From positions 1 to 64,000 of IMG/VR virus record IMGVR_UViG_3300020391_000004: a DNA stretch of 64,000 nt. One strand, given 5' to 3'. This document shows positions 7,707-55,368 of the stretch, one piece after another. The notes below the pieces were generated by a model that had not been told where the DNA came from, made no database searches, and was given only the letters and a program-made list of their open reading frames with translations. Every line of letters begins with the position of its first letter. The first letter of the stretch is position 1. The position numbers and the translations under genes are program-made. The stretch comes from a virus.

Positions 7707-7890
7707 CCTCTATTTTATCTATGATATGTTCTGTGACCGTTTTTCCTGTAGTTTCTTCTACTGCTAAACCTGCCCCACCTGATATGATTCCAGCGGTGTT
7801 TCCTGTAACAAGACTATGCACAAGACTACCTACACCAAATAAAGGGCTACATCCACCTAGCATTAATAATACAACTAGCCTAAGGACCAT
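7687..7890 (-). CDS. Small lipoprotein
   Basis: Hydrophobic N-terminus with an LGGC lipobox. Confidence 0.6.
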   Translation of the reverse strand: MVLRLVVLLMLGGCSPLFGVGSLVHSLVTGNTAGIISGGAGLAVEETTGKTVTEHIIDKIEVDIVLN

Positions 7891-9034
7891 TATATCCCCT
7901 TATTTTTTCTGCAATAGTCTGTGCAGTATAAGCACTCAATGTCCATCCTAAATGTCCATGTCCTGTGTTATACCATACATTAGATTTATTTTTACTTTGG
8001 GCTACTATAGGCATCATACTAGGAGTCATAGGTCTCAGTCCAGCCCAAGGTTTTACATCTTCTGTGTTTATTCCTTCAAACATAGATTCAGCCCAACGTA
8101 CTAAAGGTTTAATTCTTGCTTGAATAATGTCTGTGTTGTATCCATTAAACTCAGCGGTACCTGCTACTCTTAATCTATTTTTTCCTAGTCTTGCAGTAAC
8201 TATCTTTGCTTCGTCATCTAATAAACTTACCCACGGAGCATTTCCTGGATTGTTAATTGTTATACTGTAACCTTTTACAGGATATATAGGCAAATTGTCT
8301 TTAATTGTACTTGCTAATTGTTTACTTCCTGTTCCGGCACAAACTACTATTGGTCCATCAAAGTCTAGTTTATCTACAGTATCAGTTTTAAATACAACTC
8401 CATATTTTTCTTCTAAAACTTTTTCAAGTTCTACGCAAAATTTATGTATATCTCCTGTAAAGTCACTAGTGTTATAAAAGCCTCCTATAATATTAGGATT
8501 GCTTAGTGCAGGTTCAATAGTTTTTATTTCTTCAGTACTAACTTCCCATCTATTTAATCCTGCCGTTCTATATAAATCGTTTGTGGCCCATGCCTGTTCT
8601 AACTCTTCTTCAGTAGTGTAGACATGAAGTATACCTTTTTCTACTTTATCAAACTCTATACCTTCTTCATCTGCAATTTGTTTATATAGTTTGTGTGCTT
8701 CTAAACTCATACGACAGGTTTCTATTGTGTTTACTTTTCTGTTTTTTATTTCTAAAATAAATTTTACAAACCAACTGTATTTGTCTAAACTAGGAGTAAG
8801 GTTTATTTTAAGTGGAGCATCAGGTTGTGTTAACCATTTGATACCTTTTTTAACATTACGCCAACTATTCCATGTTTCAGCATTGCTGGCACTTAGTTGT
8901 CCACCATTAGCATATGAAGTCGCCATTGCAGGATATTTTCTTTCGTCCTGTATAGTGACTTCGTATCCTGCTTTTGCAAGATAATATGCGGTTGTTACTC
9001 CCGTAATTCCTGCACCAATAACCAATGCTTTCAT
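7880..9034 (-). CDS. dadA: D-amino acid dehydrogenase (FAD)
   Basis: GAGITG FAD-binding motif, TSYANGGQLSASNAE, YPVKGYS, WAGLRPMTP, NTGHGHLGWTLS. Confidence 0.9.
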   Translation of the reverse strand: MKALVIGAGITGVTTAYYLAKAGYEVTIQDERKYPAMATSYANGGQLSASNAETWNSWRNVKKGIKWLTQPDAPLKINLTPSLDKYSWFVKFILEIKNRKVNTIETCRMSLEAHKLYKQIADEEGIEFDKVEKGILHVYTTEEELEQAWATNDLYRTAGLNRWEVSTEEIKTIEPALSNPNIIGGFYNTSDFTGDIHKFCVELEKVLEEKYGVVFKTDTVDKLDFDGPIVVCAGTGSKQLASTIKDNLPIYPVKGYSITINNPGNAPWVSLLDDEAKIVTARLGKNRLRVAGTAEFNGYNTDIIQARIKPLVRWAESMFEGINTEDVKPWAGLRPMTPSMMPIVAQSKNKSNVWYNTGHGHLGWTLSAYTAQTIAEKIRGYNGP

Positions 9035-9038
9035 TTTT

Positions 9039-10178
9039 TTATCCTAATAATTTACAAATATTACTTGCTAATTTTATAAAAAAGTCTTCCTTATGACCTT
9101 TTGTAGTTTCAGCAGCAGTTCCAATTCTTATGCCACTTGTTTCTACAAAGTTACGAGGATCATTTGGTACACCGTTTTTGTTTACTGTGATCCCATGTGC
9201 TTCTAGTAGGTCTGCTGCTTGCCTGCCACTATGTTTACTGTCACTTAAATCCATTAGTATAATATGACTATCAGTGCCACCAGTCTGTACAGGAAAATTA
9301 TTTGCTTGAAATACCTGACACATTGCTTTAGCATTTGAAACAATTTGTTTTGCATATATTTTATATTCATCTTCTAATGCTTCCATATAACATTGTGCTT
9401 TTGCGGCTATTATATTCATAAGAGGTCCACCTTGTGTACCAGGAAATATTGAACTGTTAATTCTTCTTGTGTAATCTGGATTATTCCAAAGTATCATACC
9501 GCCACGTGGGCCACGTAAAGTTTTATGTGTTGTACTAGTAACTACATCTGCATATGGTAAAGGTGATTCATATGCATGTCCTGCTACTAAGCCACTATAA
9601 TGTGCCATATCTACAACTAAAATTGCACCTATACTATCTGCAATATTTCTGAATGCACTCCAATCGATTTGTCTAGGATATGCACTTGCACCTGCTACTA
9701 TTACTTTAGGCATATTTAATTTAGCAGTGCCTTCAATAATATTATAATCTAAGTAGCCATTTTCATCAACACCATAAGTAACACTATTGTAAACTTTACC
9801 ACTTAGGGTTGGAGGTGCACCGTGTGAAAGATGTCCACCACTTGCTAAGTCCATACCCATTAGTATATCACCTGGTTTCATAAATGCTTGGTATACTGCG
9901 GTATTTGCATTTACACCACTATGTGGTTGAACGTTTGCAAAATCACATTGATATAATTCACAAACTCTATCTATTGCTAATTGTTCAACTTCATCCATAT
10001 TAACACAACCATTGTAATAACGTTTGCCTGGATATCCTTCTGCGTATTTGTTTGTAAAAATACTCCCACATAAATCCATTACTGCTTGGCTTGCATAGTT
10101 TTCACTTGCAATAAGTTCTATAGTTGAATCTTGTCTTTGTTGTTCTTTGTTTAGTATATTAGTAATTTCTTTATACAT
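9039..10178 (-). CDS. glyA: Serine hydroxymethyltransferase
   Basis: LIASEN, NKYAEGYPGKRYY, GGHLSHG, TTHKTLRGPRGG (PLP lysine). Confidence 0.97.
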   Translation of the reverse strand: MYKEITNILNKEQQRQDSTIELIASENYASQAVMDLCGSIFTNKYAEGYPGKRYYNGCVNMDEVEQLAIDRVCELYQCDFANVQPHSGVNANTAVYQAFMKPGDILMGMDLASGGHLSHGAPPTLSGKVYNSVTYGVDENGYLDYNIIEGTAKLNMPKVIVAGASAYPRQIDWSAFRNIADSIGAILVVDMAHYSGLVAGHAYESPLPYADVVTSTTHKTLRGPRGGMILWNNPDYTRRINSSIFPGTQGGPLMNIIAAKAQCYMEALEDEYKIYAKQIVSNAKAMCQVFQANNFPVQTGGTDSHIILMDLSDSKHSGRQAADLLEAHGITVNKNGVPNDPRNFVETSGIRIGTAAETTKGHKEDFFIKLASNICKLLG

Positions 10179-10407
10179 TTTGTATTATATCCAATCCATA
10201 TTTAAGTTTTAGCATAAACAAATCTTTTTCATTTCCAATTCTTACTCTAACACCACGTTGTAGTACATCTGAATTATCACTGCACCAAGGGCCAGTACAC
10301 ATTGTCTTTACATCATGAATTATTTCATCACGATAATTAAAGATATCTTCAGTGTTTTCCATCTCTGTATACATTAAATTATTTGGATAAGGTAATATCA
10401 CTACCAT
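10171..10407 (-). CDS. Hypothetical protein
   Basis: Overlapping-stop operon context. Confidence 0.55.
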   Translation of the reverse strand: MVVILPYPNNLMYTEMENTEDIFNYRDEIIHDVKTMCTGPWCSDNSDVLQRGVRVRIGNEKDLFMLKLKYGLDIIQNV

Positions 10408-11462
10408 GTAGCACTCTTTACACTAGTGGAAAAATTGTTAATAAGTTTTATTCGTTGATTAAAGTTATTTACTAAACTTTCTTGATTTTCAATACATAAC
10501 TTTATTAGTTTATCAACTGGTATATTAAATAATCTTTGTAGTTCTTCTAAAAACATTTCTTCTTTATTTTCACCCTGTTCAAACGAATAATCAAATAACC
10601 AGTCGCAAGGATCAAATCCTAAGTTTATTATTGTATTTCTTATATTACGTGCTTTACTATAAACCAATACAGGTTTAGCCTGAGCATAAAATTTATAAGT
10701 TTTTTCAGTAAGCACTGTATTAGTATAATCAACTCCTATAGTTTCAATACTTAAACCAAATATGTCATTTTTATAAAATGTGTTTTCTGTTTTGAAGGAC
10801 CCCCAGCCTGCTAATAAATCAAAATCAGTAAACTTAGAAATATCAGTTTGTGAAAATTTTAAGTTAGGGTTATAATATTCCATTGTTTCTTTATGTTCAT
10901 TTGCAATTATTGTAGTACACTTATTTTGATGTACGTTTAAAAAATCTAAAATAGGTTGTCTAATGCCATATCTATCATTACTGTAAACATAACTAGTATG
11001 ACAGGTGCAATTATAGTGTTTTACATCATTAAAGTTTGTTGGTGAATCATAATATGAAATTAAATCAAATATGCCTGGCAAATATATTATTGTTACAAAT
11101 TTACAAACCTCATTATGTATACTACGATTATTTGTAATAAAAAAACATTCGCTTGTCCAACTTTCGAGTGAGGCTATGTCCTTAAAAGGTTTAATACTAT
11201 TTTCTAAATTTATATAATTTTGTAAAAAATCTTCTTCAACAACTATAACACACTTAGGACCAGATTGTTTCGCAATAATGTTAACCATCTTTTTGTTTGG
11301 TGGAGTGTCTTGTATTTCACTACAAAAATCATCTCCACTATCTACAAAGTAAGTTTTATATGAAGGAAGTATGTTTTTAAACAGTAATTCACTTAGGACT
11401 AATCTATTATTACTTTCATTTGTAATTAATGAACAATAATTACTTAATTGCATTCTTTCCAC
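10401..11462 (-). CDS. TEK-motif protein, paralog 2 (divergent)
   Basis: FGLSIET...LTEKTYK...KPVL...GFD...FDYSFE. Confidence 0.5.
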   Translation of the reverse strand: MERMQLSNYCSLITNESNNRLVLSELLFKNILPSYKTYFVDSGDDFCSEIQDTPPNKKMVNIIAKQSGPKCVIVVEEDFLQNYINLENSIKPFKDIASLESWTSECFFITNNRSIHNEVCKFVTIIYLPGIFDLISYYDSPTNFNDVKHYNCTCHTSYVYSNDRYGIRQPILDFLNVHQNKCTTIIANEHKETMEYYNPNLKFSQTDISKFTDFDLLAGWGSFKTENTFYKNDIFGLSIETIGVDYTNTVLTEKTYKFYAQAKPVLVYSKARNIRNTIINLGFDPCDWLFDYSFEQGENKEEMFLEELQRLFNIPVDKLIKLCIENQESLVNNFNQRIKLINNFSTSVKSATW

Positions 11463-11643
11463 GTAATTCTTTTACAGTCTTTTTTCCAATCCTATATGCA
11501 ATTCTTGCCATACGTCTTAGCTCAGGTCTGTAGTGTGCCGTTGGTCTAGGCCCTTTATCTTCTGGTGCTCTATAATATCTTTCCATAAAGTCGGATATTT
11601 TATTAAATTGATTATTCCAAATATGTCCTTTTCCTTGATACAT
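11440..11643 (-). CDS. Hypothetical protein
   Basis: Operon context. Confidence 0.5.
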   Translation of the reverse strand: MYQGKGHIWNNQFNKISDFMERYYRAPEDKGPRPTAHYRPELRRMARIAYRIGKKTVKELRGKNAIK

Positions 11644-11994
11644 CTAAGCCTCTTTCGTTATTACGTAATCCCATGGATCACTTTTTGGTTGTTGCAATCT
11701 AGCAAATAATTCTGTATAGAAACTATCTACATTTCCGCCAAACTTTCCTTTTAAATGATCTAACATTTGTTCGACAAAGTTAAAGTCTCCTTTTTTGTAA
11801 TTTTTAATTAAGTTCTCATGTTGTACTTTAAAATGATCTAGTTCTGTCATTTCTGATAGAGGAATATCTCCAGCATCTATGACACACCAGCTTGGAACTA
11901 TATTTTCTTTTATACGGAAAGTATCTAGTTCTAACACTAAGTACCTATCCTTTACAGGTCTAATATCCTGCTCTGTTGCTAAAACTATTTTCAT
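11644..11994 (-). CDS. Conserved phage hypothetical protein
   Basis: Directly downstream of a sigma70 promoter. Confidence 0.65.
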   Translation of the reverse strand: MKIVLATEQDIRPVKDRYLVLELDTFRIKENIVPSWCVIDAGDIPLSEMTELDHFKVQHENLIKNYKKGDFNFVEQMLDHLKGKFGGNVDSFYTELFARLQQPKSDPWDYVITKEA

Positions 11995-12000
11995 ATTGCT

Positions 12001-12029
12001 ATACTATGTTATTTTGATTTATCTGTCAA
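12001..12029 (-). promoter_or_regulatory. sigma70-type promoter TTGACA-17-TAGTAT, ATG 6 nt downstream
   Basis: Read directly; no SD between the -10 element and the ATG. Confidence 0.75.
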
Positions 12030-12044
12030 TTTATTTATTGTAAT

Positions 12045-12070
12045 AAAAAAGAGGGCATAAGCCCTCTATT
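12045..12070 (-). terminator. Rho-independent terminator
   Basis: GAGGGC-TTAT-GCCCTC followed by a T-tract. Confidence 0.85.
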
Positions 12071-12088
12071 TCTATAAGTTTACTATAA

Positions 12089-12352
12089 TTATATAGCTAT
12101 CTTTGGTTCTGATCCATTGGTCATTTTGTCTGTTAAATTTTTGACAGCATCACTATCTACACAATAAAAATTACTTACAGGTCTCCCTTTATATTCCTGT
12201 TGTGCTTTTTGTGCTAGTCCATCTGCTTCGTAGTAAACAAATTCTTTACATTCTTCTACTGAGCTAAATGATGGTTCCGATATAATATATACATCTTGAT
12301 TGGGAAATTCTGGTGATGTCATCATCGACATAACAATTAAAATTGTTTCCAT
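12089..12352 (-). CDS. Small exported two-Cys protein
   Basis: Hydrophobic N-terminus, FSSVEEC...FYCV. Confidence 0.6.
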   Translation of the reverse strand: METILIVMSMMTSPEFPNQDVYIISEPSFSSVEECKEFVYYEADGLAQKAQQEYKGRPVSNFYCVDSDAVKNLTDKMTNGSEPKIAI

Positions 12353-12385
12353 TGGTTAATCTACTTTCTTTCCGTGTAAGAACAC

Positions 12386-12823
12386 TTACAGTGTACTCAA
12401 CATCTTTTTTAGTTTTTTCTTTGATTTACCAAAAACCTTTGTTTTAGCAACCAATTTTTTGTTATCGATGTTGTTTCCAACTACTACTAATCCAATCATT
12501 CCCATTGTCTTATGTGGGGTACATTGGTAAAGATAAATTCCAGGTTTTTCAAATGTATAAGTAAACTTCTTATTCATTTTACTTTTAACCTTTTTAATTC
12601 CATCTGGGGCAGCAATGAAATGTACGTTATGTCCTTTTGTTTTAGGTAACCATGTTATTGTATCACCTATCTCAACTTTTACAACGTCTTCAGAGTAGAC
12701 CATCTTTTGACCGTCTGCTCTTTTGTTAAGCATATCAAGTTGCATATCTTTACTGTATGCTAAACCTGAAAACACTACTAAAAATAAATTAACTGTAATA
12801 ACTAATATTAATAAATTTTTCAT
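12386..12823 (-). CDS. Pseudoazurin-type blue copper protein
   Basis: Signal peptide; GHNV and YQCTPHKTMGM supply the His-Cys-His-Met type 1 Cu ligands. Confidence 0.9.
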   Translation of the reverse strand: MKNLLILVITVNLFLVVFSGLAYSKDMQLDMLNKRADGQKMVYSEDVVKVEIGDTITWLPKTKGHNVHFIAAPDGIKKVKSKMNKKFTYTFEKPGIYLYQCTPHKTMGMIGLVVVGNNIDNKKLVAKTKVFGKSKKKLKKMLSTL

Positions 12824-12825
12824 TT

Positions 12826-13014
12826 TTATTTATTATCCTTTAGGCTGTCGGTTAAAGTTTTTGCTATGTCATAATGTCCATAACAGGCTAATACATGTGC
12901 TGCTCTTTGTTTTCCAATTCTTTCGAATGTTTTGTTAATTTTTCCTGTAGCCAGTGCCCAGCCTACTAAAAAACTTCTAGTCATTGTTTGAGTTCCTAAA
13001 ATTAAAGCGGTCAT
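12826..13014 (-). CDS. Small hypothetical protein (start revised to 13014)
   Basis: TAATG coupling with the upstream gene; IGKQRAA..LA..GHY.IAK pattern seen in small alphaproteobacterial proteins. Confidence 0.55.
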   Translation of the reverse strand: MTALILGTQTMTRSFLVGWALATGKINKTFERIGKQRAAHVLACYGHYDIAKTLTDSLKDNK

Positions 13015-13172
13015 TATATGCCAAACCTTCCGTGTGTTGTGTGTAATTTTTTCATTCTGTATTCTAAATCGCACAAGTCAGTTGACTGTGCAAGGTATTT
13101 CTCGTTAGCACTTCGCGAATCAAACATGTTTCGAAACATTGCCACAAGATTTTTTAATAGCGTCTTAGCCAT
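13014..13172 (-). CDS. DUF3563-like small protein (52 aa, start revised)
   Basis: AAGGAG RBS; EKYLAQSTDLCDLEYRMKKL motif. Confidence 0.6.
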   Translation of the reverse strand: MAKTLLKNLVAMFRNMFDSRSANEKYLAQSTDLCDLEYRMKKLHTTHGRFGI

Positions 13173-13200
13173 TTTTTTCTCCTTATTAATGTTATATGCT

Positions 13201-13275
13201 TGAGGGGAGCAATACCGCGGTCTGTTTCCCGCCGCCACTTGGTCTTTCCCAGGTGCCATGTAGTTTCTACTACAT
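13201..13275 (-). ncRNA. Candidate structured leader/small RNA (three hairpins)
   Basis: GC-rich island in AT-rich DNA; three consecutive stem-loops downstream of TATAAATA at 13279-13286. Confidence 0.45.
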
Positions 13276-13411
13276 TCTTATTTATAGTTATAATACCACA
13301 TTTCTAGGCAAAAATCAACATGCATTTTGTAAAGACGGTATTGCTTTTTTAGCAACAATAGGAGCAAAAATGGTCCTATTCTATATGATATAACAATAAT
13401 GTATTTTTAGT

Positions 13412-14377
13412 TTATAATCCGTTTGGAACTATTACATAGTGTATTGCTAGTACTATTCCTAAACTTGCACCTAAACCTATCATCATCTTCATAAAGTCTC
13501 TTCCTACAATAGGAAATACATTCTTTAGTCTGTATGATCCATTGCTCATTGTACTAATTGCTAGTTCTCTACCACATAGTAGTCCAACAAATACCCAAGT
13601 AGTTGACATCGGTATGTTGTTTAGTTCTTTAAAGACGAACAAGCATAAGAAGTATGCGCCATCAATTATACATGCACTTCGTACATATCTAGTGTGTTGC
13701 TTTTCTAATACAATCTTTTGTATCTTTCCTCCACCTTCACGGAACATAAATCCTAAGCCTAGTACAAATACTAAACTTACACCTATCATCATATCCCATG
13801 GCACTGCTCTTGGCAAAAATACTGCAATATTGGCTACATCATGACTTAACCATGTGAACCATAAGAAGCCTGTTGTAATCCATTGTCCTATACGCCAATA
13901 CTTTTTACGTTCTTCTTTTACTGGATCATTACGTTCATCTAGTCTTCTTGCTACAAGTATCCATAAACAGTAGGCAAACACACCTGCTACTGCATAACCC
14001 ATGATTGATTTCACAAGCATTTTCTCTAGTATAAACGTACTTGCAAAGGCACTTAAAACTAAAAAAGATGTACTAACAGGTACACCTATCCTTGTGAGCA
14101 ATAATAATACTAACGGTGCCATAGCATGATACCATTGTATTTCTTGGAATGGTATCTTAGTTAATCTGCCGTAACTAATATCTCCGCCGTTAGTATACCA
14201 ACCATACCATAAACACCAAAGTAATATTGTGCTACTTGCTCCCCATAATATAGTCCAATGAAATCTTTGATTGTTACTTGCGATCCATGTACCTAATGTT
14301 TGTACACTATCATTCGCAATAACACTATAGCCTGCGAATAAAAATCCCAGTGCCATCCATAATGTTAATTGATCCAT
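13412..14377 (-). CDS. PiT/PHO4-like inorganic phosphate transporter-like membrane protein
   Basis: Multi-TM; ANDSVQTLGT and SHDVANIA repeats echo the PiT GANDVAN signature; PVSTS and PMSTT repeats. Confidence 0.6.
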   Translation of the reverse strand: MDQLTLWMALGFLFAGYSVIANDSVQTLGTWIASNNQRFHWTILWGASSTILLWCLWYGWYTNGGDISYGRLTKIPFQEIQWYHAMAPLVLLLLTRIGVPVSTSFLVLSAFASTFILEKMLVKSIMGYAVAGVFAYCLWILVARRLDERNDPVKEERKKYWRIGQWITTGFLWFTWLSHDVANIAVFLPRAVPWDMMIGVSLVFVLGLGFMFREGGGKIQKIVLEKQHTRYVRSACIIDGAYFLCLFVFKELNNIPMSTTWVFVGLLCGRELAISTMSNGSYRLKNVFPIVGRDFMKMMIGLGASLGIVLAIHYVIVPNGL

Positions 14378-14411
14378 AATCTTCCTCTAGATATATCTTT
14401 AATTAATGTTA

Positions 14412-14440
14412 ATTCTACATTAATATTTAATATCTGTCAA
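14412..14440 (-). promoter_or_regulatory. sigma70-type promoter TTGACA-17-TAGAAT
   Basis: Read directly upstream of the transporter. Confidence 0.75.
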
Positions 14441-14524
14441 CTCGAAAAAGATTACAGTTTTGTTACAAATTTAATAAACTTTTGTTACAAGATGTCAATT
14501 GGTAAATATGTTTAGGAGAGTCAA

Positions 14525-14722
14525 ATGATAAAAAATTTAAAAGATTTAGTTATAGTCTTACTCGTAGGAGGAGTACTCACACTTCTAGGTGTAATAATCA
14601 TAGGTGATTACTATGTTGCATTACAAGAAAATAGACCTATAGACGAGGAAGTGATTACATTAATGAAAATGGCACTTACAGGTCTAATAGGTATAATTGC
14701 TGGTTACATGGGTTCAAAATAG
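14525..14722 (+). CDS. Small two-TM membrane protein
   Basis: TAAATA and AGGAG upstream; two hydrophobic helices. Confidence 0.7.
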   Translation: MIKNLKDLVIVLLVGGVLTLLGVIIIGDYYVALQENRPIDEEVITLMKMALTGLIGIIAGYMGSK

Positions 14723-14934
14723 AATACAGGTTGTAATACAAGTGAGTTCATACTCACACAACCCATTTCGGTAATATCTACTTTTCCATAAGCACGATTA
14801 GCCGAATCTATCATGTTTGTTTGATTTTTACTTACATATGCTTTGCATTCCATCATATTTGTAAATGGAATACTCTGATTAACTTTAATGTCAGATCCAG
14901 ACAATGATGCTATGACAATATAAATGAATATCAT
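14704..14934 (-). CDS. Small exported two-Cys protein (start revised to 14934)
   Basis: MIFIYIV hydrophobic start, FTNMMEC...MGCV; TAATG coupling. Confidence 0.55.
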   Translation of the reverse strand: MIFIYIVIASLSGSDIKVNQSIPFTNMMECKAYVSKNQTNMIDSANRAYGKVDITEMGCVSMNSLVLQPVFYFEPM

Positions 14935-15155
14935 TAGTACACCTTTGTTGTTTTTGTGTTTATTCTTCGTGGTTCGCATACTGCTATGTATGACCTTGTC
15001 TTAGGAACATCATCGCCTGCTGTCCTGTTGGGAACCGGTGGTTGATTAGTTAGCCTCTCTGCAAAATATTTGCAATCATCAACACTGTAAAAATACATGT
15101 TTTGGCTAATTGTTTTTTGTCCGAGATAAAGTATTAGTAAGAATACGTGAGTCAT
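14934..15155 (-). CDS. Small exported two-Cys protein
   Basis: Hydrophobic start, FYSVDDC...AVCEP. Confidence 0.55.
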   Translation of the reverse strand: MTHVFLLILYLGQKTISQNMYFYSVDDCKYFAERLTNQPPVPNRTAGDDVPKTRSYIAVCEPRRINTKTTKVY

Positions 15156-15161
15156 AATATA

Positions 15162-15653
15162 TCAACTAGTATATACTACTGCTCCAATTACTGCTCCTGC
15201 ACCAATTATTACAACACCTATTACTAAGAGAACTGTTTTTATATCTGCCCATAGTTCTGCATCTGCTTTACGTTTTTCTATACGTGCTTGTTTTTCAGCC
15301 TCTTTAGCTTCTTGGATACGTTTTGCACGTTCATCAACAATACCTTGCCAAGTTCCAGGACCAAAACGTAAATTTATAAGTGTAGAAATTTCCTGCAATT
15401 GCTCAGCGGCTAGTCGTGCATCTATTGTTTCTCTTGCAATATGTGATGCGTCAAATTGTTCCTTTACACCTAATCCTTTCTTATTGGATCTTCTGTTTAC
15501 TTCGTCTTTTCCGCGAAATAAAGCATCAATATGACTACCTAATTCACCTATGTCTTTACAAGTGTCTATATTTGATTTTATAAATTCTACACTAGATTTC
15601 ACTAGTGCAATACCCGCAAGTATTTCTGCTACTGGCATAAAATATCCTCTCAT
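15162..15653 (-). CDS. Coiled-coil protein with C-terminal TM
   Basis: Charged helical middle and hydrophobic C-terminus; late promoter upstream. Confidence 0.6.
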   Translation of the reverse strand: MRGYFMPVAEILAGIALVKSSVEFIKSNIDTCKDIGELGSHIDALFRGKDEVNRRSNKKGLGVKEQFDASHIARETIDARLAAEQLQEISTLINLRFGPGTWQGIVDERAKRIQEAKEAEKQARIEKRKADAELWADIKTVLLVIGVVIIGAGAVIGAVVYTS

Positions 15654-15682
15654 TATCTCTCAATAGTATTTATACTACTATA

Positions 15683-16894
15683 TTAAGACTTGAGTACTGA
15701 TACTCCTATGCTAATAGGTAAGGGTTTTGTCTTTTCGAATTTTGGAAGTAATGGTAACAATATCATAAAGTGTATAAAATAATATGCAGTTGCTATTCTA
15801 GAAAGCACAACATATATGCCTTCAGCTGGCATAGCACCTAAATATCCTAGTGCAATACAATCTACGAACAGGATCCAAAAGAATATTTTATACCAAGGCC
15901 TAAATGTACTGCTTCTCACAGGTGACCTATCAAGCCACGGTAAAACAAACAATACGACTATAGCACCAAACATTAATAGCACTCCACCTAGTTTGTCAGG
16001 CACTGCACGTAGTATTGCATAGAAAGGTAAAAAGTACCATTCAGGAACAATGTGGGCTGGAGTTACCATTGGGTTTGCAGGTATGTAATTATCTGGATGC
16101 CCCATAAAATTTGGAAAGAAAAATATTGCAGCAGCAAATAATGTTAAGAAAACTCCTAGTCCAAATAGATCTTTAATTGTGTAATATGGATGAAAAGGTA
16201 GTGTATCTTGTGTTCCTTTAATATCAATTCCAATAGGATTGTTAGAACCAAATCTATGTAATGCAACTAAATGTAATATTACTACTCCAACTATAACAAA
16301 TGGAAGTACAAAATGCAAACTAAAGAATCTGTTTAACAGTGCATTGTCTACACTAAAACCACCCCATAGCCATGTAACAAATTGTTCGCCTACTAATGGT
16401 ATTGCACTAAACAAGTTTGTAATAACCGTTGCACCCCAGAAGCTCATCTGTCCCCATGGTAATACATAACCCATAAAAGCAGTTGCCATCATTAGTAGTA
16501 GTATTAGTACACCTAGTATCCATAACAGTTCTCGAGGTGCTTTGTAACTGCCGTAATAGAGCCCTCGGAATATATGAATGTAAGTTACAATGAAAAAGAA
16601 ACTTGCTCCATTCATGTGTATGTAACGTATTAACCATCCGTGATTTACATCTCGCATAATACGTTCTACACTATCAAATGCATAATCAACGTGTGCAGTA
16701 TAATTCATACTTAGAACAATACCAGTGATTATCATTGTGACTAGTGCTATACCACTAAGACTTCCAAAGTTCCACATATAGTTTAGGTTCTTTGGAGTAG
16801 GGTACTCGTTAAGTTCGTGATTCATAAAAGTGAATATACCAAGTCTGTGGTCTATCCAATTTACAACGGAATTTTTAAATTTTTTATTTGCCAT
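15683..16894 (-). CDS. petB: Cytochrome b of the cytochrome bc1 complex
   Basis: [57 protein letters not shown]; all four heme-ligand His present; 403 aa. Confidence 0.98.
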
Positions 16895-17061
16895 ATTGAT
16901 ATTTATTATTTCGATTGGTTAAGTCTTTGATGGAGTTTCTTAACTCCATAATTTTGTTGTTTTATATACATAATTTGAGATGATCTTAAAACTTGAATTA
17001 TAGGACCATTTGGTGCAACAATTTTTTCTATTGACGGAATATGTTTGACGTACTTAGCCAC

Positions 17062-18090
17062 TTACACTTTAGCCATAGTCAACTTTAATTGCACAAATAC
17101 TTCTTTAGGACTAGCAGCACTTGGAATAATACTAATACCATGAGCACCAAATTGTCCAGCTTCTCTATACTTCGCAAAGTCTCCTCCGTTATTTACACAA
17201 ATATATTTGAGATTGGAAAAATTTATTGCTAGTACACTATCAAATCCGTGACTTGCTTTATAGCTATCAAAATTTGCTTTACCGTACATAATCTCTGCAC
17301 GTTTTGAATCATCTTGCATAAATGCTTCTACAAATGGTCCAGGATTTTTAAATATTGTATCATACCATTTACCTAGCATTTCTTGTCTTTGTTTCTTTTT
17401 CTCAGGATCATTTAATGGTAAATCTATACTAAGATATTTCATAAAATTATCTAATCCAAGAGTTGCTTGTTTGGATATATGATTTGCAATGCTAGGAAGT
17501 TGTGTCCAATATTCCTTAGCTACTGCAGCAGTAGGGCCTCCTTCACCTAAGCGACCTCCGCCTGTTTTCATTTCTGCTTTTACTTCAATACCGGCTCCGT
17601 CGACCGAAATATCCCCGCCGGTATCTTTAAGTGTTATCTTATTTGACAACATTGCTAGTGCATATTCTCCAGGACCTTTTTGTTTTTTTCCGGCTCCGAG
17701 AGTAGCAATAGATTGAAATATTCTTGTTGCAGTCTCATCACCATCAAAAAATGATCTTACTGTTCCAATACCAGGTGTCTTTACAACTGAGGTATTTACG
17801 ACGCTTCCTGTTTCTAGTTTATCTAAAAATTTTACTAAACTTTTATAGTCTACGCCTGAATGGTAAATCATCTGTGTTAGTATTTTCAAAAGGGGCTCTA
17901 GTTTAAATGTGTCATCTTGTGTTGGTGGAATAAAAGATTTTGCAATTTTAGTGCTAATATCTTCGCTACTTAATGTTCTATATATTCTATCCAACAACTC
18001 AGCATCTTGTTCGTTATCTGCTCGCAGTCCAGATACAGAAGCAATAATTGCCTTTTTCATTTCGTCGGAGTTAAGTTCATATAACAGCAT
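17062..18090 (-). CDS. Putative PD-(D/E)xK nuclease-like protein with N-terminal MLLYEL motif
   Basis: GPGEYAL...GGDISVDGAGIEVK (D...ExK). Confidence 0.45.
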   Translation of the reverse strand: MLLYELNSDEMKKAIIASVSGLRADNEQDAELLDRIYRTLSSEDISTKIAKSFIPPTQDDTFKLEPLLKILTQMIYHSGVDYKSLVKFLDKLETGSVVNTSVVKTPGIGTVRSFFDGDETATRIFQSIATLGAGKKQKGPGEYALAMLSNKITLKDTGGDISVDGAGIEVKAEMKTGGGRLGEGGPTAAVAKEYWTQLPSIANHISKQATLGLDNFMKYLSIDLPLNDPEKKKQRQEMLGKWYDTIFKNPGPFVEAFMQDDSKRAEIMYGKANFDSYKASHGFDSVLAINFSNLKYICVNNGGDFAKYREAGQFGAHGISIIPSAASPKEVFVQLKLTMAKV

Positions 18091-18881: not shown

Positions 18882-19187
18882 CTAATTTGATTCTAATTTT
18901 ATTTCTAGAGGATAGCCTTGATTCCTTGCACTAAGTAAAACTTCTACACCTTTTTGCTCTGCAACTTCAAAAGGTAATTGTGCAACCACTCCTGAACCTC
19001 GTTCATTAATCTCCATTGCTTTTTGATCTGCATCAGTAGATTCATATGAAAAAGTTCCCATTAAACTTTCTGTAACGAATTGAAATGTTGTTACATTATC
19101 ATTTAAATATATAATTTTGTAATCCTTAGGTGGTTCAAGTTCATTTAATATTGGTCTTATTTTTTGTTTAACTTCCGTGTCACTCAT
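18882..19187 (-). CDS. clpS: ATP-dependent Clp protease adaptor ClpS (atypical)
   Basis: EPPKDYKIIYLNDNVTTFQFV...EVAEQK...YPL pattern. Confidence 0.9.
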   Translation of the reverse strand: MSDTEVKQKIRPILNELEPPKDYKIIYLNDNVTTFQFVTESLMGTFSYESTDADQKAMEINERGSGVVAQLPFEVAEQKGVEVLLSARNQGYPLEIKLESN

Positions 19188-19205
19188 GTAAACTCCATGT
19201 TATAT

Positions 19206-19225
19206 GGGGAGTATTGCTACTCCCC
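19206..19225 (-). terminator. Stem-loop after Hsp20 (terminator or stabiliser)
   Basis: GGGGAGTA-GCAA-TACTCCCC perfect 8-bp stem; weak U-tract. Confidence 0.55.
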
Positions 19226-19242
19226 TTACTAGTATTTACTAT

Positions 19243-19725
19243 TTAAGTATTTTTAATTTCAATTTTGATTGGCTTTTTTTCTTCTGGAATTATTCTTTCC
19301 AAGTTAATGTAAAGCATACCATCCTTGAACTGAGCACCTTCAACTTTAATGTCATCTGCAAGTGTCCACTTTCTAGTAAAACCACGTTGTGCTATACCTC
19401 TATGTACAAATGTTCCAGCAAAATTATTCTCATCAAACTTTGGTGGATTATGTGTTATAGTAAGTACACCATCAGCAGTTTCAATATCTAAGTCTTCTTG
19501 CTTGACTCCTGCTAGTGCCATTTCGATTTGTATAAATTCATCATTCTCACCATGCTTTACAATATTGTAAGGCGGATATCCTGTACTTGATGATTGATGG
19601 TCAACATAACGAAACATGTCGTCAAAGACTCTATCGAATCCTACAGCATATGGTGTTAATTTATTAAAATCCTTTGATAGGACATCTTTAAATGAATTAA
19701 AATCAAGTGAAGAAATTCTAGTCAT
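19243..19725 (-). CDS. ibpA: Small heat shock protein (IbpA/Hsp20)
   Basis: VGFDR.F, YPPYNI, EMALAG, HRGIAQRGF.R.W.L, GML.I.LERIIPEEKKP. Confidence 0.95.
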   Translation of the reverse strand: MTRISSLDFNSFKDVLSKDFNKLTPYAVGFDRVFDDMFRYVDHQSSSTGYPPYNIVKHGENDEFIQIEMALAGVKQEDLDIETADGVLTITHNPPKFDENNFAGTFVHRGIAQRGFTRKWTLADDIKVEGAQFKDGMLYINLERIIPEEKKPIKIEIKNT

Positions 19726-52064: not shown

Positions 52065-52457
52065 TTAAGCAATAGCATCCTGCTTGTTCTCGGATGGTCC
52101 ACCACGTATTACTGTTGCTGAACTAAAGTTTAGTCCATCAACTGTACCTAATGCTCTTAGTGCTGTTTGCATTACTGTCATAGTAGCGAAGTCTGCAACA
52201 TCTTCATCGTCACCAACAATACCTTCAATACCAATTATTTGCTTTGTGTTACTGTCAAATAATGGTCCGAGGTAAATGATTGTTCCGAATCTACCTATTG
52301 TTTTAAAACATGCATCTAATGCTGACGCTGGACCAGTTTTTGCATTTACTGCTGCCAAGTAGTCAACTTCAATGTATGTTATTTCTTCTGCACTACCGCC
52401 CAATGACACCGGAAAAGTTGGTGTTGATACTGGGTGTATTCTTGTTAATTCTGCCAT
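52065..52457 (-). CDS. Small virion protein, paralog C
   Basis: MAELTR start; QTALRALG end motif shared with 52800. Confidence 0.65.
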   Translation of the reverse strand: MAELTRIHPVSTPTFPVSLGGSAEEITYIEVDYLAAVNAKTGPASALDACFKTIGRFGTIIYLGPLFDSNTKQIIGIEGIVGDDEDVADFATMTVMQTALRALGTVDGLNFSSATVIRGGPSENKQDAIA

Positions 52458-52799: not shown

Positions 52800-53207
52800 T
52801 TATACAAATTCTAAGCCGCTAGAGGATACACTTGATCCTGATACGTCTACACTGTTACCACCTACTGAAGTACCTAGAGCACGTATTGCTGCTTGTAATG
52901 TTGTTGTTGTCCATGCACCTTTAGGGTATACTGCAACTGATATCTGACCAGTTGTATCACCTTCTACTTGATACATTTCAATATTTGCTTTGGTTGTAAT
53001 TTCCTGAAACATTTTCTCTACTGACTCACCAGCATCTAATTCGTTACGAATATCGTTTACGTCACCAGATACATCTTGTTGGATGATTTTAAAGAAATCC
53101 AGGTCTGGACCTGTCAGTATGACTAATTCGTCACCACTAATAGCACCGGTGGTTCCACCGGATCCTTGTCCTTTTACGTTACCATTTGTACGGGTAATTT
53201 CCGCCAT
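52800..53207 (-). CDS. Small virion protein, paralog A
   Basis: MAEITRTNG start; LQAAIRALG end motif. Confidence 0.65.
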   Translation of the reverse strand: MAEITRTNGNVKGQGSGGTTGAISGDELVILTGPDLDFFKIIQQDVSGDVNDIRNELDAGESVEKMFQEITTKANIEMYQVEGDTTGQISVAVYPKGAWTTTTLQAAIRALGTSVGGNSVDVSGSSVSSSGLEFV

Positions 53208-53274
53208 TTAGTTTCTCCTAGTTGTTTTTGTAAGTATAACTTACATGCATATATTTATATAAAACTAAGAAAAT

Positions 53275-54000
53275 CTAATCTATCATTTTTCCTATGGCTA
53301 CACCTGTAGCAAACCCTGCGGCTGCTTTAGCCCATAACGGAAGTTTTTTATCTTGAGGAATAAGTTTTTTATTTTTAATCGTGCCCATGTATTGTCTACT
53401 AATATCACTGCGGAACTTTCCATCTACACGTTGACTATTAACCATTCTAGCACTTAATCCTGCACGTTCGCCTTGTCCTGTGCGTCCATAGTCAGCACTA
53501 ACACGCCTTGCTTGTTTTAGAAAACTACTGTTTATTCCTAAATCCTTTTGTGTTTTAATTAAAAATGATCTGTCCATTGCCATGTTATCTCTACCAGATG
53601 CAATATCTCTGAGATATCTTTTGAATTGTATTTCGTTAAAGTTTACACTGCCTGAACTAGTCACACCTTTATATTTGTTGGGATTATTAATTATACTTGC
53701 TAAGTTATGTAAATCTGTACCACCTGGCTTAATTCCTGAGAAGTTCATAAATTTTAGTGTATCTTTTGCATACTTTTTTGCAAACGCAGGATTTTCAAAA
53801 CGCATCTGTTGTAGCATTAATAGTTGTTCGAAATAACTTTCTGCTACATCAGTCATATCTCTCCCTAAAGCATCACTTCCTGTACGTATGTAGCGAGCTT
53901 CAGTAATTTCATCTCTAATAAAACTATATTTCTTTTTCTTCTCTACTGTATGACCACCATACATAGTAGCCCATTCATTTGCTGTATATTTTTCTGACAT
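53275..54000 (-). CDS. Putative head-associated protein
   Basis: ITE site; operon context. Confidence 0.55.
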   Translation of the reverse strand: MSEKYTANEWATMYGGHTVEKKKKYSFIRDEITEARYIRTGSDALGRDMTDVAESYFEQLLMLQQMRFENPAFAKKYAKDTLKFMNFSGIKPGGTDLHNLASIINNPNKYKGVTSSGSVNFNEIQFKRYLRDIASGRDNMAMDRSFLIKTQKDLGINSSFLKQARRVSADYGRTGQGERAGLSARMVNSQRVDGKFRSDISRQYMGTIKNKKLIPQDKKLPLWAKAAAGFATGVAIGKMID

Positions 54001-55368
54001 TTATTTTGCTCTCAATTTATCGAAGTATCCACTTCCAGGCCCACTCTTAATTGGTTTAAAATCTAAAACTTTATCAGGTGCTTTTCTGCCTTTGTAAATT
54101 ATATCTGTATCTTTTTTTGGATCATAAGGTCTGTATTTTGGACCAGGCACTACAGAAACTGGTGTAATCGGTCTTTGTCTTAGTGGTGTTGTGTTTTTTT
54201 GCACTCTATTTTTATTTTGTACTCTATTTTTTGGATCTACCTTAGGACTTAGTTTTGGATCTAATTTTGGATCTAACTTAGGATCAAGTTTAGGATCTAA
54301 CTTAGGACTTAGTTTAGGATCTAACTTAGGACTTAGTTTAGGATCTAGCTTAGGCAATGTTTTTATTTTTACTTTTGGTTGAACTTTAGGTTTAGTAATT
54401 ACTTTGTCAAAATCCGGATCAAAATCTTGTTTAATTTTTTTCTCTAGGTCTTTTTTAATTTTATTTTGTACTTTTGGTGTGACAATAGTTGTTGAACCGT
54501 CATTGTTATTAATTGTTGTTCCTATTTTTGGTAACTTCTTGACATCTACTTTAGGTGCTTTACTTTTATCTATAACAGGACCAGTAGGCTCTTTTACTTT
54601 AGGTTCACTACTACTTCCTCCGAAACCAAATAATCCTTTAATACCGTCAATTACTTTATCTACTATGTTTTTATCTTTATTTTTAATTACATTATCGATA
54701 CGTTTATTGACTTTATCAATTGTTTTCTTAGTATCACGGACATCTTTTCCGCCACCCTGAAATTTTTTAGGAGTTTTATCGCCACCCGACACATTACTTC
54801 CACCTGGTGGTTTATTGCTTCCGCCTCCGCCAAATTTATTTCCACTTCCGATACCGGAATCTTTTCTCTTTTTAGCAATGTCTTTTAATTTATCGCCAAC
54901 CTTTTTTGCAATCTCTTCTTTTTCTTTATTTGTAAGTTTACGTTTTAATCCTTGAGGTCTAAATCTACCTGGTATATCAAATTTTTGACCTTTTTTAGGT
55001 CCTGATGTATAAGTGCCCGTAATATTAGGTTCTTTCTTAGGTTTTAAACTAGGACCAAACAGATCCCTATCGCCTTTTTTTACATTGTTTGGTTTAAACT
55101 GATTAGGCTTAACTTTGTTACCTTTTTGTAGTTCTTTAGCTACCTTATTAACACTATTAGGATTATTTTTTAACCACTGTGATACTCTACCAGCATTTTT
55201 ACGTGTTAAATTAAGACCTAGTGAACGTAGTATTTGAAACAATGCACCACCTATTGCAATTGTTCCTGGATTAATTACAAATTCATTAAGATGATCCCTC
55301 TGTGAACAATATATACCTATTGAGTCTTCTCTTAGTGTTGTTTTATTTTCAAACTCACGTAATCTCAC
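54001..55368 (-). CDS. Lys/Pro-rich low-complexity protein (MRLREF N-terminus)
   Basis: Very basic; DPKL/SPKL tandem repeats. Confidence 0.65.
   Translation of the reverse strand: MRLREFENKTTLREDSIGIYCSQRDHLNEFVINPGTIAIGGALFQILRSLGLNLTRKNAGRVSQWLKNNPNSVNKVAKELQKGNKVKPNQFKPNNVKKGDRDLFGPSLKPKKEPNITGTYTSGPKKGQKFDIPGRFRPQGLKRKLTNKEKEEIAKKVGDKLKDIAKKRKDSGIGSGNKFGGGGSNKPPGGSNVSGGDKTPKKFQGGGKDVRDTKKTIDKVNKRIDNVIKNKDKNIVDKVIDGIKGLFGFGGSSSEPKVKEPTGPVIDKSKAPKVDVKKLPKIGTTINNNDGSTTIVTPKVQNKIKKDLEKKIKQDFDPDFDKVITKPKVQPKVKIKTLPKLDPKLSPKLDPKLSPKLDPKLDPKLDPKLDPKLSPKVDPKNRVQNKNRVQKNTTPLRQRPITPVSVVPGPKYRPYDPKKDTDIIYKGRKAPDKVLDFKPIKSGPGSGYFDKLRAK
54232..54358 (-). repeat. 12-nt tandem repeat encoding (D/S)PKL, about 10 units
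   Basis: LPKLDPKLSPKLDPKLSPKLDPKLDPKLDPKLDPKLSPKVDPK with synonymous variation. Confidence 0.9.

Follow-up and report, generated by a model that had tools for sequence, protein, structure and literature searches.

Three metabolic genes that lie within 9 kb of one another in a marine myovirus are best explained as three separate cassettes with two different jobs in a flexible island of the phage genome, a reading to which a probability of roughly 0.6 is assigned. The genes encode a DadA-like dehydrogenase, a pseudoazurin and a cytochrome b. They are located in the first part, 64 kb in length and referred to here as the window, of the viral record IMGVR_UViG_3300020391_000004 (131,614 bp; IMG/VR; CheckV completeness 38%). 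The initial annotation had described them as a possible respiratory electron-transfer segment that runs from DadA via quinone and cytochrome b to pseudoazurin. The presence of the three genes, intact and on the minus strand, was confirmed by Pfam and NCBIfam models and by the catalytic motifs of the products. Their positions are as follows.

7880-9034, minus strand: DadA-like FAD-dependent D-amino-acid dehydrogenase, 384 aa, a compact phage form (Pfam DAO).
12386-12823, minus strand: exported pseudoazurin, 145 aa (TIGR02375).
15683-16894, minus strand: solo bc1-type cytochrome b, SAR116-like, 403 aa (PF00033 and PF00032).

The record itself is a genuine large myovirus. It contains genes for a tail sheath protein, the large terminase, a virion structural protein, UvsX, SSB, helicases, a DNA polymerase and a class I ribonucleotide reductase (RNR).

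If the three genes formed one segment, they would be expected to occur together in related phages. The comparison covered 76 other viral cytochrome b loci and 43 DadA loci (with at most 10 kb of flanking sequence) as well as 32 long records of 42-524 kb. The distribution of the three genes proved to be patchy and independent, and among the records compared the window phage is the only genome that holds all three. A DadA gene was found in none of the 76 other cytochrome b loci and pseudoazurin in three of them, and cytochrome b was absent from all 43 DadA loci. Thirteen of the long records carried cytochrome b and 14 carried DadA without any overlap; pseudoazurin overlapped with each of them once. 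The firm negatives are provided by the collinear relative G014 and by three complete genomes. These complete genomes (G016, 357 kb; G023; G025) possess DadA and lack cytochrome b and pseudoazurin, and G016 is kin to the window phage, having 55 of 193 open reading frames (ORFs) in common with it. Five relatives selected by their terminase (42-180 kb) had none of the three genes and are too fragmentary to be informative.

The closest relative, G014 (75 kb), is collinear with positions 20-35233 of the window, with 47 ORFs in common at a median amino acid identity of 72%. The serine hydroxymethyltransferase (SHMT) gene, the DadA-like gene, a PiT-like membrane gene and the small flanking genes are all kept in G014 and their order is unchanged. 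At the syntenic site of cytochrome b, the gene is absent from G014 and its neighbours are 26 nt apart. At the syntenic pseudoazurin site no pseudoazurin was present, just an ORF for a 31-aa membrane peptide (52100-52200). The genes found in this region of G014 instead are those for a PstS-like binding protein and for an enzyme of the IMPDH/GMP-reductase type. Because the gene content of G014 differs here, the region is interpreted as a flexible island of accessory cassettes, and it is this property of the island that would account for the proximity of the three genes. The 31-aa ORF of G014 encodes a single helix, and its start context is the same as that of the pseudoazurin gene, with the first five codons being similar. 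It may be a remnant of the signal peptide of a deleted pseudoazurin.

The initial annotation had also stated that the genes are not one operon, and this was borne out by their assignment to separate units. The DadA-like gene shares its unit with SHMT, and the following features define the unit and its border with that of pseudoazurin.

9039-10178, minus strand: SHMT, 379 aa (PF00464, E 3e-145; NF000586, 545 bits).
10171-12029, minus strand: string of overlapping or abutting genes (g_11644, g_11440, g_10401, g_10171) upstream of SHMT-DadA.
12029-12001, minus strand: predicted sigma70-like promoter motif TTGACA-17-TAGTAT, which heads the SHMT-DadA gene string.
12067-12050, minus strand: terminator-like hairpin with a 7-bp stem (5 GC pairs) followed by a T run, which closes the pseudoazurin/g_12089 unit.

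SHMT ends 4 nt upstream of the DadA-like gene. From this arrangement, SHMT-DadA and pseudoazurin are placed in separate units with a predicted terminator between them. The SHMT-DadA neighbourhood is kept in G014 and G015, where a 74-aa ORF is situated between both genes. At the 43 viral loci with relatives of the DadA-like gene, glutaredoxin, NrdA and NrdB genes were found upstream of it in 14-21 cases. SHMT was located within 4 kb of DadA in four of these 43 other loci, in varying arrangements. The genomic company of the DadA-like gene is nucleotide and one-carbon metabolism, not respiration. A 59-aa gene for an Hc1 histone-H1-like protein (PF07432, E 1e-10; e.g. L162:9822-10001) was present immediately upstream of DadA in 24 of the 43 loci.

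The DadA-like protein itself matches PF01266 (DAO) with an E-value of 1e-58 and its N-terminal FAD-binding motif is present. It scored above the cut-off of NCBIfam model NF009074, 'D-amino acid dehydrogenase' (517 versus 494 bits), and below that of the E. coli-type model NF001933 (304 versus 383 bits). Relative to the 410-aa DadA-like protein of the SAR116 single-amplified genome (SAG) G033, to which it is 50% identical, it shows deletions of 21 and 5 aa. The nearest solved structures are glycine oxidases (E 3e-12).

The cytochrome b gene encodes one unsplit polypeptide in which PF00033 and PF00032 are both above their gathering scores (256.8 and 154 bits). The heme ligands H93, H107, H194 and H208 form two H-x13-H pairs for hemes bL and bH, and the PEWY motif of the Qo site is found at position 284. 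Across 80 bacterial cytochrome b sequences, 140 positions show at least 95% conservation; 137 of these are kept in the viral clade to which the window copy belongs (clade A), and the three departures are P19G, T186L and L196V. A 14-aa C-terminal tail is absent from the copy in the window. The initial annotation had pointed to Rieske and cytochrome c1 genes elsewhere in the genome as something to look for. In the whole 131.6-kb record no Rieske, cytochrome c1 or class I cytochrome c (PF00034) gene was found. As Rieske and c1 are not in the record, these partners would need to be supplied by the host. The flanking ORFs (163, 51 and 342 aa) were considered as hidden Rieske or c1 genes and were rejected, since they had no family matches and showed neither CxxCH nor Rieske motifs. 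The 342-aa protein, which matches no family, is encoded upstream of cytochrome b (17062-18090, minus strand) and is missing in G014. A homologue of it (54-63%) is located directly upstream of a 92-93% identical DadA in L158 and L159, and this is further evidence for the shuffling of cassettes.

The occurrence of cytochrome b without its partner genes is a genuine feature of phages. Neither Rieske nor c1 was found near the gene at any of the 76 viral loci, whereas in 75 of the 80 bacterial loci cytochrome b lies between the two. The viral copies include two deeply separate clades. Clade A, which consists of 33 contigs and the window, is monophyletic (Shimodaira-Hasegawa-like approximate likelihood ratio test, SH-aLRT, 97) and is nested in SAR116 beside the SAG AH-287-L13. 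The petB of this SAG (L078), situated in a Rieske-b-c1 (petABC) operon, is the nearest bacterial cytochrome b with 87% identity. Clade B comprises 32 contigs (L035-L077; P0305, P0309) and groups with Ca. Fonsibacter, a freshwater SAR11, with a support of 100 and about 75% identity. Clade B contigs reach about 170 kb, and RNR, polymerase and helicase genes are common to many of them and the window phage. In clade A the median non-synonymous divergence (dN) was 0.066 and the synonymous divergence (dS) 1.6, with a dN/dS of 0.04. Recent capture from a host was rejected as the cause of the high cytochrome b identity, because synonymous sites are saturated. This implies that the high identity reflects long-term constraint. 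The suggestion in the initial annotation that the phage bears auxiliary genes of a respiratory type is supported by these data.

Cytochrome b seems to have moved between phages as well. The copies of G001 and G002 are 89-91% identical to that of the window, yet just 9-12 of 193 ORFs are in common with these phages, at about 43% identity. At 27 loci a gene for a SegE-type GIY-YIG homing endonuclease (PF19835, E 1e-34; e.g. L005:3258-3659) was found 54 nt downstream of cytochrome b, with a class II RNR-like gene upstream of cytochrome b. In the window no SegE-type gene lies beside cytochrome b. The pattern in G001 and G002 together with the SegE neighbour indicates transfer of cytochrome b between phages, and the SegE-type endonuclease is the likely vehicle by which it moves between co-infecting phages. 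No published account of a solo phage cytochrome b was found. More generally, a literature search on cytochrome b, bc1, pseudoazurin and DadA in an auxiliary role in phages gave nothing relevant, apart from one preprint. In that preprint a whole bc1 operon is listed for a temperate phage of Nitrosospira, a case unlike the present one.

The pseudoazurin was identified by TIGR02375 (118.6 bits versus a cut-off of 109.85), the amicyanin and plastocyanin models giving 53 and 44 bits. Its best solved relative is the Sinorhizobium pseudoazurin 3TU6 (E 4e-27), with which the entire mature protein aligns (residues 26-142, the C-terminal part included). The His/Cys/His/Met copper ligands are complete, the KGHN and C-x2-H-x4-M motifs are present and the protein starts with a hydrophobic signal peptide. 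It is 55% identical to the pseudoazurin of the SAR116 SAG G033. In L021, L028 and L029 (record G002) pseudoazurin is positioned directly upstream of cytochrome b. Reading of the sequences of L028 and L029 revealed a single nucleotide between the stop codon of pseudoazurin and the ATG of cytochrome b, which suggests that the two genes would be expressed together in these phages. In the window, the genes are apart and each of them is preceded by one of the two occurrences of the motif ATAATAAATA.

12827-12836, minus strand: ATAATAAATA, 3 nt upstream of the pseudoazurin ATG, containing a late-promoter-like TAAATA box.
16900-16909, minus strand: ATAATAAATA, 5 nt upstream of the cytochrome b ATG.

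TAAATA followed after 3-6 nt by ATG was found at 9 of 193 genes, against about 0.6 expected, and one of the nine is a virion structural gene. By their sequence and placement, these boxes suggest a T4-like late expression. A second TAAATA box is situated past the stop codon of cytochrome b. The cassette thus has the motif on both sides, as one would expect if promoter motifs are the sites at which cassettes recombine. A transcription unit or regulatory signal common to all three genes was not found, as the ATAATAAATA box covers cytochrome b and pseudoazurin only. Of the chain proposed initially, the step from bc1 to pseudoazurin is retained, in view of the adjacency of the genes in three phage contigs, the common ATAATAAATA motif and their joint absence from G014. 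The segment as a whole, from DadA via quinone to cytochrome b and pseudoazurin, is not, for in the other loci and long records compared DadA never accompanies cytochrome b and in the window it has its own unit with SHMT.

Measured in 2-kb windows, the GC content ranges from 29 to 37%, and almost every gene lies on the minus strand. A low-GC uncultured subclade of SAR116 with about 30.5% GC has been described (PMC8547437). The GC content at third codon positions (GC3) of cytochrome b is 0.25 in AH-287-L13 versus 0.26 in the phage copy. SAR116 SAG genomes encode petABC and pseudoazurins that are 53-57% identical to the phage protein, and AH-287-L13 has in addition a DadA-like protein with 50% identity to the phage enzyme. 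In the two SAR11 genomes searched, pseudoazurin was unmatched and the DadA matches reached merely 27-28%. The host of the phage is probably a member of the low-GC SAR116 subclade.

According to the reading favoured here, the phage cytochrome b would serve as a host-matched core subunit of complex III and most likely joins the Rieske protein and c1 of the host, in parallel to the entry of cyanophage D1 (psbA) into photosystem II of its host. It is proposed that cytochrome b matches the host lineage because it must fit the host partners. The exported pseudoazurin most likely adds periplasmic carrier capacity downstream of bc1, and both genes are predicted to be governed here by the same late-type promoter box. 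The DadA-like and SHMT genes would constitute a separate and probably early operon. Their most likely role is in amino-acid or one-carbon metabolism, for instance the removal of glycine or D-amino acids, and the DadA-like reaction would release ammonium and oxo-acids for nucleotide synthesis. Any electrons that DadA delivers to quinone would then be a by-product, and a selected chain would not start with this step. A broader proposal, which is put forward tentatively and at somewhat less than even odds, is that solo host-matched cytochrome b is the respiratory counterpart of cyanophage psbA in large phages of SAR116 and SAR11, some of which have an adjacent pseudoazurin. It would keep up or retune respiration late in infection and would have spread between unrelated phages by means of the SegE-type endonuclease.

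Several points weigh against the reading of separate cassettes with two jobs. Most of the compared records are fragments (8-50% complete), so that absence from them is weak evidence. E. coli DadA feeds the quinone pool, and a respiratory contribution of the phage enzyme is therefore conceivable. The two copies of ATAATAAATA are close to the chance expectation of 1.8, their placement alone being striking; the motif is absent from the cytochrome b/pseudoazurin pair in L028 and L029, and the promoter classes were assigned from short motifs rich in AT. The usual partner of phage pseudoazurin is a DoxX-like gene downstream (52 of 81 loci), not cytochrome b. Moreover, cytochrome b alone makes no new complexes unless Rieske and c1 of the host are available, and we know of no indication that it is a subunit with a fast turnover like D1.

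In 46 of the 81 pseudoazurin loci a 69-aa peptide is encoded upstream of pseudoazurin, with a weak match to COX4_pro_2 (21.6 bits, under the 22-bit cut-off). The pseudoazurin of the window has neither DoxX nor COX4_pro_2-like partners, and the DoxX-like gene of the genome is 76 kb away (genome positions 88293-88715). This gene lies outside the window in the stretch 88293-89044 of the genome (L325:4293-5044, minus strand). It encodes a membrane protein (PF07681, 25.8 bits) that is 59% identical to the DoxX normally found after phage pseudoazurin, and it overlaps a gene for a 110-aa membrane protein with four helices.

The single co-selected segment, in which DadA reduces quinone, quinol is oxidised by phage cytochrome b within bc1 and the electrons pass on via pseudoazurin, so as to sustain the proton-motive force, is now considered quite unlikely. 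It is true that three intact genes are found within 9 kb, that counterparts of all three are encoded by the probable host, SAR116, and that the steps are known from other bacteria, E. coli DadA passing electrons to the respiratory chain and Paracoccus pseudoazurin taking them from bc1. However, DadA and cytochrome b were never found together in the 76 loci, the 13 other long cytochrome b records or the 14 long DadA records, and the collinear G014 has DadA without the other two. The genes also differ in transcription unit and in promoter motif, and elsewhere DadA is located among genes of nucleotide metabolism. The same company (SHMT, RNR and glutaredoxin) speaks against a looser version, in which the genes were acquired independently and all three nevertheless aid the energy supply of the host, DadA being an extra quinone reductase in a functional chain that is no genetic module. 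Independent acquisition is borne out by the observed distribution, and the DoxX-like gene of the genome suggests that envelope redox genes have accumulated. Nothing was found, though, that ties the DadA clade to quinone: the protein misses the E. coli-type cut-off and has two deletions compared with the host enzyme. This version is judged to be improbable, if worth keeping in mind.

Two further explanations concern the nature of the cytochrome b gene. It could subvert respiration instead of supporting it, for example as a variant subunit that alters the output of bc1 (reactive oxygen species, proton-motive force) for the purpose of host takeover or exclusion of other phages. The gene comes without its partners, the clade has its specific P19G, T186L and L196V changes at otherwise conserved sites and the window copy is without the C-terminal tail, all of which would fit such a role. 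With 137 of 140 conserved positions intact, including all heme ligands and PEWY, and with a dN/dS of 0.04, it nevertheless resembles a working enzyme. Each of the two viral clades corresponds to a host lineage of its own, as would be expected of a subunit that has to fit host partners, and in some phages the gene for an electron acceptor is adjacent. Subversion of the host complex is accordingly regarded as a doubtful explanation. An artefact, with host DNA joined to a viral contig by mis-assembly or binning, is hardly credible, in spite of the 87% identity of cytochrome b to the SAR116 gene and although in GenBank the only 'phage' records matched by cytochrome b and DadA resemble a prophage edge or bacterial contigs. 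Each insert is flanked by phage genes that are kept in G014 and the junctions are gene-exact. Solo cytochrome b without petA or petC is present on 76 independent viral contigs, and the viral copies group in clades of their own, their synonymous divergence being saturated. In addition, the GC3 of 0.26 equals that of the other viral copies. Among GenBank phages none of the three genes was genuinely present, and pseudoazurin had no match at all. The records named 'Acinetobacter phage MD-2021a' bear an ordinary dadA and look like bacterial DNA. 'Helicobacter phage Pt11470_1' terminates inside a cytochrome b gene, which looks like an overrun of a prophage edge (CAKLQH020000012.1, CAKLQF020000006.1 and PQ159902.1 are the records listed jointly for these cases).

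Other genes of the region merit a description. Between pseudoazurin and cytochrome b a PiT-like membrane protein of 321 aa is encoded (13412-14377, minus strand), with two 'ANDxxQT / SHDVAN' repeats. Its score with PF01384 is 22.7 bits, below the cut-off, and it is 92% identical in G014. A sigma70-like promoter motif for this gene is predicted at 14440-14412. In G014 (stretch 52885-55180) the PiT-like gene is followed by the one for the PstS-like phosphate-binding protein, and PiT-like relatives were found near pseudoazurin in six other viral loci. Judged from its sequence, the PiT-like gene is likely an accessory gene for phosphate uptake that stands outside the chain, and it may be a new phage gene of this kind. 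At 18882-19725 (minus strand) a ClpS-like adaptor (101 aa) and an Hsp20/alpha-crystallin-like protein (160 aa), both judged by eye, are encoded side by side. Homologues of the Hsp20-like protein recur near pseudoazurin in 36 viral loci (tblastn).

Cyanophages carry auxiliary genes for photosynthetic electron transport, namely psbA/psbD, petE (plastocyanin), petF and PTOX. The genes described here resemble these in combining a host-like membrane core subunit and a soluble blue-copper carrier of the main energy-conserving chain, of the host. They too are dispersed over flexible islands, evolve under purifying selection and are close to the host lineage in phylogeny. They differ in that respiratory complex III of heterotrophic SAR116/SAR11 is concerned, that the carrier is pseudoazurin and not plastocyanin, and that their expression and benefit are presumed. 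A respiratory pairing of cytochrome b and pseudoazurin that is new in kind relative to the cyanophage photosynthesis genes is plausible on the strength of these gene comparisons. The phage cytochrome b shares family, length class and all catalytic residues with that of the SAR116 petABC (fbcFBC) operon, the difference being the operon context. The DadA-like protein has the DAO-superfamily fold class, the NCBIfam name and the N-terminal FAD motif in common with E. coli DadA. Unlike the latter it falls below the E. coli-type cut-off, and it is encoded beside SHMT or RNR genes. Bacterial DadA-type proteins are about 30-50 aa longer than the phage form, the SAR116 homologue being 26 aa longer. The pseudoazurin belongs to the same family as that of the pseudoazurin/DoxX phage cassette, and in the lineage of L021, L028 and L029 the downstream partner is cytochrome b.

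Photosynthetic electron-transport auxiliary genes are a textbook feature of cyanophages. To our knowledge, equivalents for the respiratory chain of the dominant heterotrophs of the ocean have barely been described. The analysis removes the chain of three encoded steps and replaces it by a testable picture of a complex III core subunit, which has long been maintained by phages under strong constraint and exists in a SAR116-type and a SAR11-type version. If this subunit functions as proposed, the phages would offer a natural system for studying the exchange of bc1 subunits, and infection would directly shape the respiration and carbon use of abundant marine bacteria.

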